From assembly GCA_039091335.1 (NCBI GenBank), contig JAWCME010000002.1, forward strand, positions 8,735-72,734: a stretch of DNA of 64,000 nucleotides, given 5' to 3'. Position numbers and translations under genes: made by a program. The notes beneath the pieces were generated by a model that did no database searches, was not told the origin of the DNA, and saw nothing but the letters and a program-made list of their open reading frames with translations. Every line of letters begins with the position of its first letter. The stretch's first letter is position 1. Source of the DNA: Candidatus Aenigmatarchaeota archaeon. Its GTDB lineage: Archaea > Aenigmatarchaeota > Aenigmatarchaeia > CG10238-14 > SCSR01. Shown in pieces: positions 15,935 through 63,540 of this stretch.

Positions 15935-16024
15935 GCCCCCGTAGCTCAACTTGGATAGAGCAGTGGCCTTCTAAGCCATTGGTTGCGGGTTCAAAAGCTT
16001 AGACTGAAATTCCCGTCGGGGGCA
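15935..16024 (+). tRNA. tRNA-Arg(UCU) with a 15-nt intron in the T-loop
   Basis: Hand-folded cloverleaf. Acceptor GCCCCCG/CGGGGGC, D arm GCTC/GAGC, anticodon arm GTGGC-CTTCTAA-GCCAT, T stem GCGGG/CCCGT. The T-loop is 22 nt instead of 7. Confidence 0.9.
15996..16010 (+). other. BHB intron at tRNA position 59/60
   Basis: The T stem forms the outer helix. Central helix TTCA(15990-93)/TGAA(16005-08), bulges AAA(15994-96) and ATT(16009-11). Excision leaves TTCAAAT. Confidence 0.8.
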
Positions 16025-63392: not shown

Positions 63393-63472
63393 CTAATAAT
63401 AAATTGTTTTAAAATAAATTGAGTAAAGAATAAAAATGGGTCCGACCGGATTCGAACCGGTGACCTCCGCCG

Positions 63473-63484
63473 TTCTGATACATT
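63473..63484 (-). other. tRNA-Val intron 2 (canonical position 37/38)
   Basis: The 12 nt AATGTATCAGAA. Central helix CTGA/TCAG, bulges CGA and AAC. The anticodon stem forms the outer helix. Confidence 0.7.
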
Positions 63485-63492
63485 CGTCAGGG

Positions 63493-63505
63493 TTCCGCTC
63501 TCTCT
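63493..63505 (-). other. tRNA-Val intron 1 (position 29/30), relaxed BHB
   Basis: The 13 nt AGAGAGAGCGGAA. Central helix ACGT/GCGG has 3 pairs plus an A-G mismatch. Bulges CGA and AAC; 4-bp outer helix TAGG/CCTG. Confidence 0.55.
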
Positions 63506-63540
63506 CGACGTCCTACCACTAGACCACGGACCCAACTTTA

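Follow-up and report, generated by a model that had tools for sequence, protein, structure and literature searches.

The tRNA-Val(GAC) locus

The window analyzed here, i.e., the whole 64,000-nt stretch of DNA, carries on its minus strand a tRNA gene that is interrupted twice in its anticodon arm (Table 1). The precursor reads GGGTCCG TG GTCT AGTGGTA GGAC G TCG[AGAGAGAGCGGAA]CC CTGACG[AATGTATCAGAA]C GGCGG AGGTC ACCGG TTCGAAT CCGGT CGGACCC A, where the two bracketed segments are the putative introns. The Rfam model RF00005 aligns to it from end to end (50.1 bits, model positions 1-71) and leaves 36 nt of the anticodon arm unaligned. The 3′ CCA is not encoded in the gene, and the run of T residues that directly follows the discriminator base is likely to function as an archaeal transcription stop. 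A methyltransferase ORF is located 7 nt upstream of the gene, and the ORFs downstream encode Rpr2/Rpp21, a subunit of RNase P, and the ribosomal protein S19e.

The host genome is that of a DPANN archaeon with a small genome (570 kb, 33% G+C, 29 contigs, 87% complete), and its nearest named genomes are Aenigmatarchaeota MAGs, with a GlyRS identity of about 50%. No second Val tRNA gene was detected anywhere in this 87%-complete assembly, which leaves the gene described here as the only one detected.

Table 1. Features of the tRNA-Val(GAC) gene and of the predicted splice motifs (window coordinates).
Feature	Position	Strand	Description
Whole tRNA-Val(GAC) gene	63437..63533	-	97-nt precursor body, G1 to discriminator A73; Rfam RF00005 and cloverleaf model, 0 mismatches
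Exon 1, tRNA positions 1-29	63506..63533	-	Acceptor 5′ strand, D arm, G26, anticodon-stem U27 C28 G29
Putative intron 1, 13 nt, AGAGAGAGCGGAA	63493..63505	-	Non-canonical position 29/30 in the 5′ strand of the anticodon stem; removal restores TCGCC/GGCGG
Exon 2, 8 nt, tRNA positions 30-37	63485..63492	-	C30 C31 and loop C32 U33 G34 A35 C36 G37, with the anticodon GAC inside
Putative intron 2, 12 nt, AATGTATCAGAA	63473..63484	-	Canonical position 37/38; central helix CTGA/TCAG 4/4; outer helix 2 bp, or 5 bp once intron 1 is removed
Exon 3, tRNA positions 38-73	63437..63472	-	C38, GGCGG stem strand, variable loop AGGTC, T arm, acceptor 3′ strand, A73
TTTTT run directly 3′ of A73	63432..63436	-	Read from the sequence
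Intron-1 motif, central helix, 5′ strand A24 C25 G26 U27	63508..63511	-	D-stem 3′ strand, G26 and U27
Intron-1 motif, central helix, 3′ strand GCGG, followed by 3′ bulge AA|C30	63495..63498	-	Pairs with 63508-63511
Intron-1 motif, outer helix, 5′ strand U20 A21 G22 G23	63512..63515	-	Pairs with C31 C32 U33 G34
Intron-1 motif, outer helix, 3′ strand C31 C32 U33 G34	63488..63491	-	Also needed by the intron-2 motif; geometry and constrained folds
Intron-2 motif, central helix, 3′ strand TCAG	63475..63478	-	Pairs with C32 U33 G34 A35 at 63487-63490

Two excisions restore the cloverleaf

Between G26 and the variable loop we counted 42 nt where 17 are needed, as had been noted originally. The original prediction explained this excess by two excisions, at 29/30 and 37/38, that yield an anticodon stem TCGCC/GGCGG and a loop CTGACGC with the anticodon GAC, and the sequence and the coordinates that it gave for both introns are exact. 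All 3,690 removals of one or two segments that leave 17 nt in the anticodon arm were enumerated. None of the single 25-nt removals in this enumeration produced a 5-bp anticodon stem; the best of them gave 4 bp and a loop TCAGAAC without U33. The models with the strongest stem (TCGCC/GGCGG) all excise either AGAGAGAGCGGAA or the same 13 nt together with the next C, and those ranked at the top excise exactly AGAGAGAGCGGAA. It is the BHB register, and not the stem, that determines where in the loop intron 2 is placed. Other intron-2 junctions, which would lead to the anticodons TAG, TGG or TGA, fit the stem equally well but are without a BHB register, and for those resulting in Leu or Ser anticodons the required long variable arm is missing; these junctions were rejected.

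A BHB-aware search was also performed with a script that excises segments recursively wherever a relaxed BHB site is present and scores the cloverleaf that results. Its best model was the same two-intron Val(GAC) tRNA, with a score of 79 and no stem mismatches, compared to a score of 52 and four mismatches for the runner-up. A better cloverleaf with a single intron or with a different anticodon was searched for and not found. The two excisions are thus upheld by the enumeration and by the BHB-aware search, as well as by the orthologues described below.

When the doubly spliced sequence was submitted to ARAGORN, it was recognized as a perfect 72-nt tRNA-Val(GAC). The predicted spliced tRNA forms 21 of 21 stem pairs in stems of 7, 4, 5, and 5 bp and displays U8, A14, the D-loop GG, U33, a purine at position 37 and a TTCRA T loop; its anticodon loop would be CUGACGC. 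A35, C36, and A73 are identity elements of valine tRNAs. The spliced model has the anticodon GAC with A35 and C36, the discriminator A73 and a 5-nt variable loop.

Both introns are associated with relaxed motifs

The central helix of the intron-1 motif (ACGT/GCGG) consists of three base pairs, C25-G, G26-C, and U27-G, and an A24.G mismatch, and the outer helix of four, U20-G34, A21-U33, G22-C32, and G23-C31. The predicted cuts are C28 G29|A on the 5′ side and AA|C30 in the 3′ bulge. This confirms the geometry first described for intron 1, namely an intron that interrupts the 5′ strand of the anticodon stem and a relaxed motif that has one A-G mismatch and takes a 4-bp outer helix from the 3′ side of the D arm. 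In intron 2, all four pairs of the central helix are formed (4/4), with C32 U33 G34 A35 paired to the intron sequence TCAG, and the predicted cuts are C36 G37|A and, in the 3′ bulge, AA|C38. Its outer helix comprises 2 bp in the precursor and 5 bp once intron 1 is removed. The bulges of the two introns are alike, with CG|A on the 5′ side and AA|C on the 3′ side.

The inner helix h′ has 0 bp in both introns, which differs from the strict hBHBh′ (3-4-3) arrangement, and with a length of 12-13 nt the introns leave just 5-6 nt of loop beyond the central helix. What both introns do have is an outer helix, a 3-nt 3′ bulge, a central helix of about 4 bp, a terminal loop in which the predicted 5′ cut lies and the correct junction, which are the elements of the relaxed hBH/BHL type. 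Both are predicted to be relaxed hBH (bulge-helix-loop) motifs and not strict BHB motifs. Intron 2 had been described as a clean BHB; while the helix CTGA/TCAG and the bulges CGA and AAC were found as described, the motif is not a strict BHB because it is without an inner helix, and its 5′ bulge belongs to a terminal loop of 8 nt.

At random positions of the window, the intron-1 geometry is found in 0.45% of cases and the intron-2 geometry, with intron 1 removed, in 0.03%. Shuffled intron sequences reach the observed central helices in 3.9% (intron 1) and 0.9% (intron 2) of the trials. Two properties of intron 1 are unfavorable: its central helix contains only three standard pairs plus a conserved A.G, and Gly(GCC) genes with this intron do not conserve its outer helix (A22/C32). 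Other registers for the intron-1 central helix, in which nucleotides 25-28 would pair with the intron, found no support when the relatives were inspected.

The register of the intron-2 motif also bears on the exact position of the second splice site. If it were shifted by one nucleotide, the two excisions would produce the loop CUGACGA, with A38, instead of CUGACGC. ARAGORN indeed places intron 2 as ATGTATCAGAAC, and the cloverleaf alone cannot separate the two placements. However, the BHB rule applied to CTGA/TCAG, by which the cut falls behind the second of the three nucleotides in each flanking bulge, leads to G37|A and A|C38, and nucleotide 38 is a pyrimidine (T or C) and never A in relatives with and without the intron. 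The shifted site is very unlikely in our view, and the predicted identity of nucleotide 38 as C rests on the BHB register.

Folding of the precursor and order of splicing

The intron-2 motif uses C32-A35 for its central helix and C30/C31 for its outer helix, and the intron-1 motif uses C31-G34 for its outer helix. Since nucleotides 31-35 are common to both, the two motifs cannot form together, and splicing would therefore have to be sequential. An alternative fold of the pre-tRNA and a possibly ordered splicing had been proposed from the outset, which is reasonable in view of this competition.

In constrained folds of the full precursor, the two motif folds reached -28.2 and -29.8 kcal/mol, compared to -33.6 kcal/mol for the free ensemble, i.e., a cost of about 4-5 kcal/mol. 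Neither motif is present in the unconstrained MFE structure of the full precursor, which pairs the D region with intron 1 in a form that is not cuttable by the enzyme. Unconstrained folding was not accepted as an arbiter, as energy alone does not decide the junctions. After removal of intron 1, the fold containing the intron-2 motif is near the MFE, with -34.4 kcal/mol compared to -35.3 kcal/mol for the ensemble.

According to the mechanism that we propose, the D stem would open, so that A24-U27 pair with GCGG of the intron and U20-G23 with C31-G34, thereby forming the intron-1 motif. EndA would cut out intron 1, RtcB would rejoin the ends and the RNA would refold. With intron 1 gone, the anticodon stem would have all of its 5 bp and would thereby provide the intron-2 motif with its outer helix; in a second round, intron 2 would be cut out and the ends joined to give the 72-nt tRNA with the anticodon loop CUGACGC. 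Because removal of intron 1 completes the stem that serves as the outer helix for intron 2, and the fold is then near the MFE, we predict that intron 1 is probably excised before intron 2. We infer the splicing itself as well as its order and the enzyme.

Orthologous genes with filled and empty intron sites

A BLAST search with the precursor against 60 related genomes revealed that Val(GAC) of G055 and G051 is interrupted by both introns at these two positions. The two introns are likewise present in Val(GAC) of G063, and the pair also occurs in G013. The anticodon stems in G055, G051, and G063 are changed yet complementary, as in CCACC/GGTGG of G055 and CTGCC/GGCAG of G051. In other relatives, the introns occur singly or are absent: Val(GAC) of G016 contains the 37/38 intron only, Val(CAC) of G019 and G033 the 29/30 intron only, and Val(GAC) of G010 and G030 is intronless. 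The introns at 37/38 in the orthologues are 12-15 nt long.

All 118 genomes of the order were then covered by a search with the pattern GACG-N8-13-GCGKAA-CCYT, which resulted in 26 matches in 20 genomes, compared to 10 for the reversed-pattern control. Twenty-five of the 26 matches are located in tRNA genes for Val-GAC, Val-CAC, Val-TAC, and Gly-GCC, while the remaining one lies in 16S rRNA and was discarded as a false positive. In the 25 Val and Gly genes, which come from 20 genomes and are spread over 10 genera and two families, the 29/30 insert ends with GCGGAA, except for a single GCGTAA. The intron of G013 has GCGT, by which the intron-1 central helix becomes complete (4/4).

Several Gly genes with three introns, as well as genes whose outer helices are weak, were solved incorrectly by the BHB-aware script; for those, a stem test was used instead, in which the 3′ strand is located by its distance from the T arm alone, without any BHB rule. 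A perfect 5-bp stem across the 29/30 insert, with 3 nt before and 2 nt after it, was observed in 24 of the 24 resolvable genes. The pair types among these genes are C-G, T-A, and T-G at 27-43, C-G, T-A, and A-T at 28-42, and G-C and A-T at 29-41.

G075 and G010 are two species of one genus whose Val(GAC) exons are identical at 74 of 74 positions; the sole difference between the genes is the 12-nt segment AACTTAGCGGAA between G29 and C30. The two genes are read as a filled-site/empty-site pair for the 29/30 intron. Likewise, the predicted mature tRNA of our gene and the intronless Val(GAC) of G010 agree in 68 of 72 positions, and one difference is a compensated T-stem pair. The comparison with relatives is the strongest line of evidence and, at the level of sequence, settles the two-intron reading.

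The same genes speak to the question of whether the locus is a decaying pseudogene, which would be disabled by the 13-nt insert while a functional Val(GAC) gene resides in the unassembled 13% of the genome. The incompleteness of the assembly (87%), the failure to find EndA in it and the imperfect intron-1 motif (3 bp plus A.G) would agree with such a decay. However, the same insert is found at the same site in 25 genes from 10 genera and two families, and the stems around it covary; a neutral lesion would not persist in this way. In addition, the other stems are perfect and all scored conserved tRNA bases are in place, many other tRNA genes of the host genome have similar mini-introns, and a second Val-like gene was not found in the assembly. 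We consider a pseudogene highly improbable. The chance that the gene encodes a single-intron tRNA of another identity is negligible: ARAGORN reports a 99-nt tRNA-Pro(CGG) in the window and, in intron mode, a Leu(CAG) with a 26-nt intron, but these two calls contradict each other, the Leu(CAG) model has a 3-bp D stem and is without a long variable arm, a single 25-nt excision never gives a 5-bp stem with U33, both anticodons are already present on other genes of the host genome, and the acceptor, D, and T arms are near base-for-base identical to those of Val(GAC) in the relatives. Taken together, the locus is very probably a functional tRNA-Val(GAC) gene with two archaeal endonuclease-type mini-introns, one at position 29/30 and one at 37/38.

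As a separate observation, 24 of the 25 genes have a G facing A24 (63495 opposite 63511 in the window), and a single gene has a T, which would pair; the search pattern had allowed G and T equally. Simple helix pairing provides no explanation for this conserved A.G, which adjoins the 3′ bulge.

Splicing endonuclease and ligase

The 87%-complete assembly of the host contained no match to the EndA profile PF01974 and no tblastn match to the EndA proteins of two relatives. EndA is encoded in 59 of 61 related genomes, and the gene of the host most likely lies in the missing ∼13% of the genome. It is worth mentioning that most tRNA genes of the host need splicing, yet the EndA gene was not detected in the assembly.

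In the relatives, EndA is encoded by one alpha-type gene of ∼188 amino acids in each of the eight genomes examined, three of which have two-intron Val genes, and a second paralogue was not detected in these eight genomes. Compared to the strict-motif enzyme of M. jannaschii, the EndA of the relatives has six extra residues in a Lys-rich region (KLKRGPK) between the catalytic Tyr and His, and this insert aligns with the inserts of the N. equitans alpha and ARMAN-2 EndA. In the enzymes of Nanoarchaea and ARMAN-2, the loop was named L3, and L3-bearing alpha4-type EndA in DPANN accompanies an increased disruption of tRNA genes (Kaneta et al., 2018, PMC5829648).

The ligase RtcB is encoded in the host genome outside the window (PF01139, E = 4.6e-85, C25:37091-37729). 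The gene is truncated by the end of contig C25, so that only profile positions 1-209 of 426 are present. In two species of the genus g20, EndA is located ∼2.2 kb from a Val(CAC) gene with the 29/30 intron (G019:C1:84549-87354 and G033:C12:21567-24110), which may be a coincidence.

Comparison with known disrupted tRNA genes

Non-canonical intron positions, including 29/30, and tRNA genes with up to three introns have been reviewed (PMC4090602, PMC4033280), with 29/30 among the sites listed there as non-canonical (PMC4090602), and work on EndA has described relaxed hBH/BHL motifs (PMC3239211, PMC5829648). With at least two endonuclease-type introns, at least one of them non-canonical, defining the multiple-intron class, the Val gene falls within it through its introns at 29/30 and 37/38. 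Such a two-intron gene is not unusual for this genome or for archaea.

The multiple-intron genes of Thermoproteales and other archaea likewise combine a canonical 37/38 intron with a non-canonical one (Sugahara et al., 2007, 2008; reviewed in PMC4033280 and PMC4090602). Similar introns are spread among different tRNAs in Thermoproteales (PMC4090602, PMC4033280), a likeness of intron sequence across tRNA species that is also observed here. In contrast to the Thermoproteales genes, the Val gene belongs to an Aenigmatarchaeota-like DPANN host and not to a crenarchaeon, its introns of 12-13 nt lie near the lower limit of the known sizes, and a single alpha-type EndA is presumed to cut them instead of an (alpha-beta)2 enzyme.

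A 13-nt hBH intron of ARMAN-2 was cut in vitro (PMC3239211). Intron 1 resembles it in its length of 13 nt, its relaxed hBH motif, its non-canonical site, its ultrasmall DPANN host and, in the relatives of that host, an EndA with an extra loop near the active site. It differs from the ARMAN-2 intron in that it is located at 29/30 in the anticodon stem and borrows the D arm for its motif, and the enzyme of the relatives is a single-unit alpha type of ∼188 amino acids, unlike the three-unit epsilon2 EndA of ARMAN-2. Cleavage of the ARMAN-2 intron was shown biochemically (PMC3239211), whereas that of the Val intron is predicted from sequence.

The short alpha-type EndA of the relatives, with its insert aligned to the loop of the N. 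equitans and ARMAN-2 enzymes, resembles the L3-loop alpha4-type EndA of DPANN (PMC5829648); in contrast to the enzymes of that study, the insert is assigned to L3 by sequence alignment only, and the EndA was seen in relatives and not in the host genome. The split tRNA-Ala of Caldivirga maquilingensis (cited in PMC4090602) shares with our gene the break at 29/30 and a BHB-like motif at the junction, but there the products of two separate genes are joined in trans, while the Val gene has a 13-nt intron in cis.

The Val gene thus belongs to a known class, in which only its lineage and the presumed single-subunit enzyme are mildly new. The current understanding of tRNA splicing is unchanged, and the biological import is modest. 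With this gene, an Aenigmatarchaeota-like lineage joins the archaea with multi-intron tRNAs, and a clean filled-site/empty-site pair is now available for the 29/30 intron. The precursor may also serve as a natural substrate to examine whether a loop-bearing single-subunit EndA of DPANN cuts relaxed motifs and whether overlapping motifs impose an order on splicing. For annotation, it is relevant that standard tRNA finders call the Val gene Pro or Leu, or overlook such genes altogether; since the Val gene is mislabeled in this way, the genome would appear to be without a tRNA-Val.

Other tRNA genes and possible mobility of the 29/30 intron

Most tRNA matches in the host genome are 83-189 nt long, and ARAGORN recognized only 16 tRNA genes in it, four of them without an amino acid assignment. 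The best models of our script, which are unvalidated, need at least two excisions for Thr-CGT, Arg-CCT, Ala-TGC, and Glu-TTC besides Val-GAC. In these script models, many introns have a common form: they start with A, end with GAA or NAA and contain four nucleotides that are complementary to the immediately preceding exon sequence. Neither Val(TAC) or Val(CAC) nor any Gly tRNA was recognized in the assembly, and the genome may harbor further disrupted or split tRNA genes that are hidden from view. Matches of 113-189 nt that were partly solved are located at C23:24121-24257, C8:2293-2481, C1:95264-95388, and C27:403-515; the partly solved genes include a Glu-TTC whose model takes three excisions, a gene interrupted by a 93-nt insert and a Leu-CAA-like gene, for which three mismatches remain.

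The identical 12-nt sequence AACTTAGCGGAA is present at 29/30 in Val(GAC) of G075 (L084) and in Gly(GCC) of G078 (L100), G024 (L096), and G104 (L097). Its flanks GACGTCG|..|CCCTG are the same in G075 and G078, and the 5′ side is GACGCAG in G024 and G104. The 29/30 site is empty in G010 and G030, which belong to the same genus as G075. The occurrence of AACTTAGCGGAA in both Val and Gly genes suggests a transfer of the intron or gene conversion between tRNA genes. Furthermore, Val(CAC) and Gly(GCC) have the same 29/30 loop within one genome (A-GGTA-GCGGAA and AA-GGTA-GCGGAA), as seen in L093/L104 (G099) and L095/L105 (G102), and the orthologous Val(CAC) 29/30 introns of sister species differ (AGAAAGCGGAA and AAATTGCGGAA). 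These shared Val/Gly intron loops hint at homogenization within a genome.

It is possible, although we regard it as rather doubtful, that the 29/30 GCGGAA intron is a recently mobile or homogenizing element among the Val-GAC, Val-CAC, Val-TAC, and Gly-GCC genes that is combined with ordered splicing by a looped alpha4-type EndA. Its target would be GACG-YNN|CC-YT, and its movement would take place within the Aenigmatarchaeota-like order. The alpha4-type EndA with the extra loop would cut a precursor with an unfolded D arm, and intron 1 would be removed strictly before intron 2. The identical 12-mer in Val and Gly genes, the filled and empty sites in one genus and the loops shared within a genome would fit such mobility.

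A further interrupted gene is found within the window. The tRNA-Arg(TCT) gene at 15935-16024 on the plus strand contains a putative 15-nt intron, AGCTTAGACTGAAAT, in the T loop at position 59/60. Rfam reports it as a truncated 59-nt match of 28.6 bits, which is below the threshold, and ARAGORN misses the gene. After excision, the predicted tRNA forms a perfect cloverleaf with the T loop TTCAAAT.
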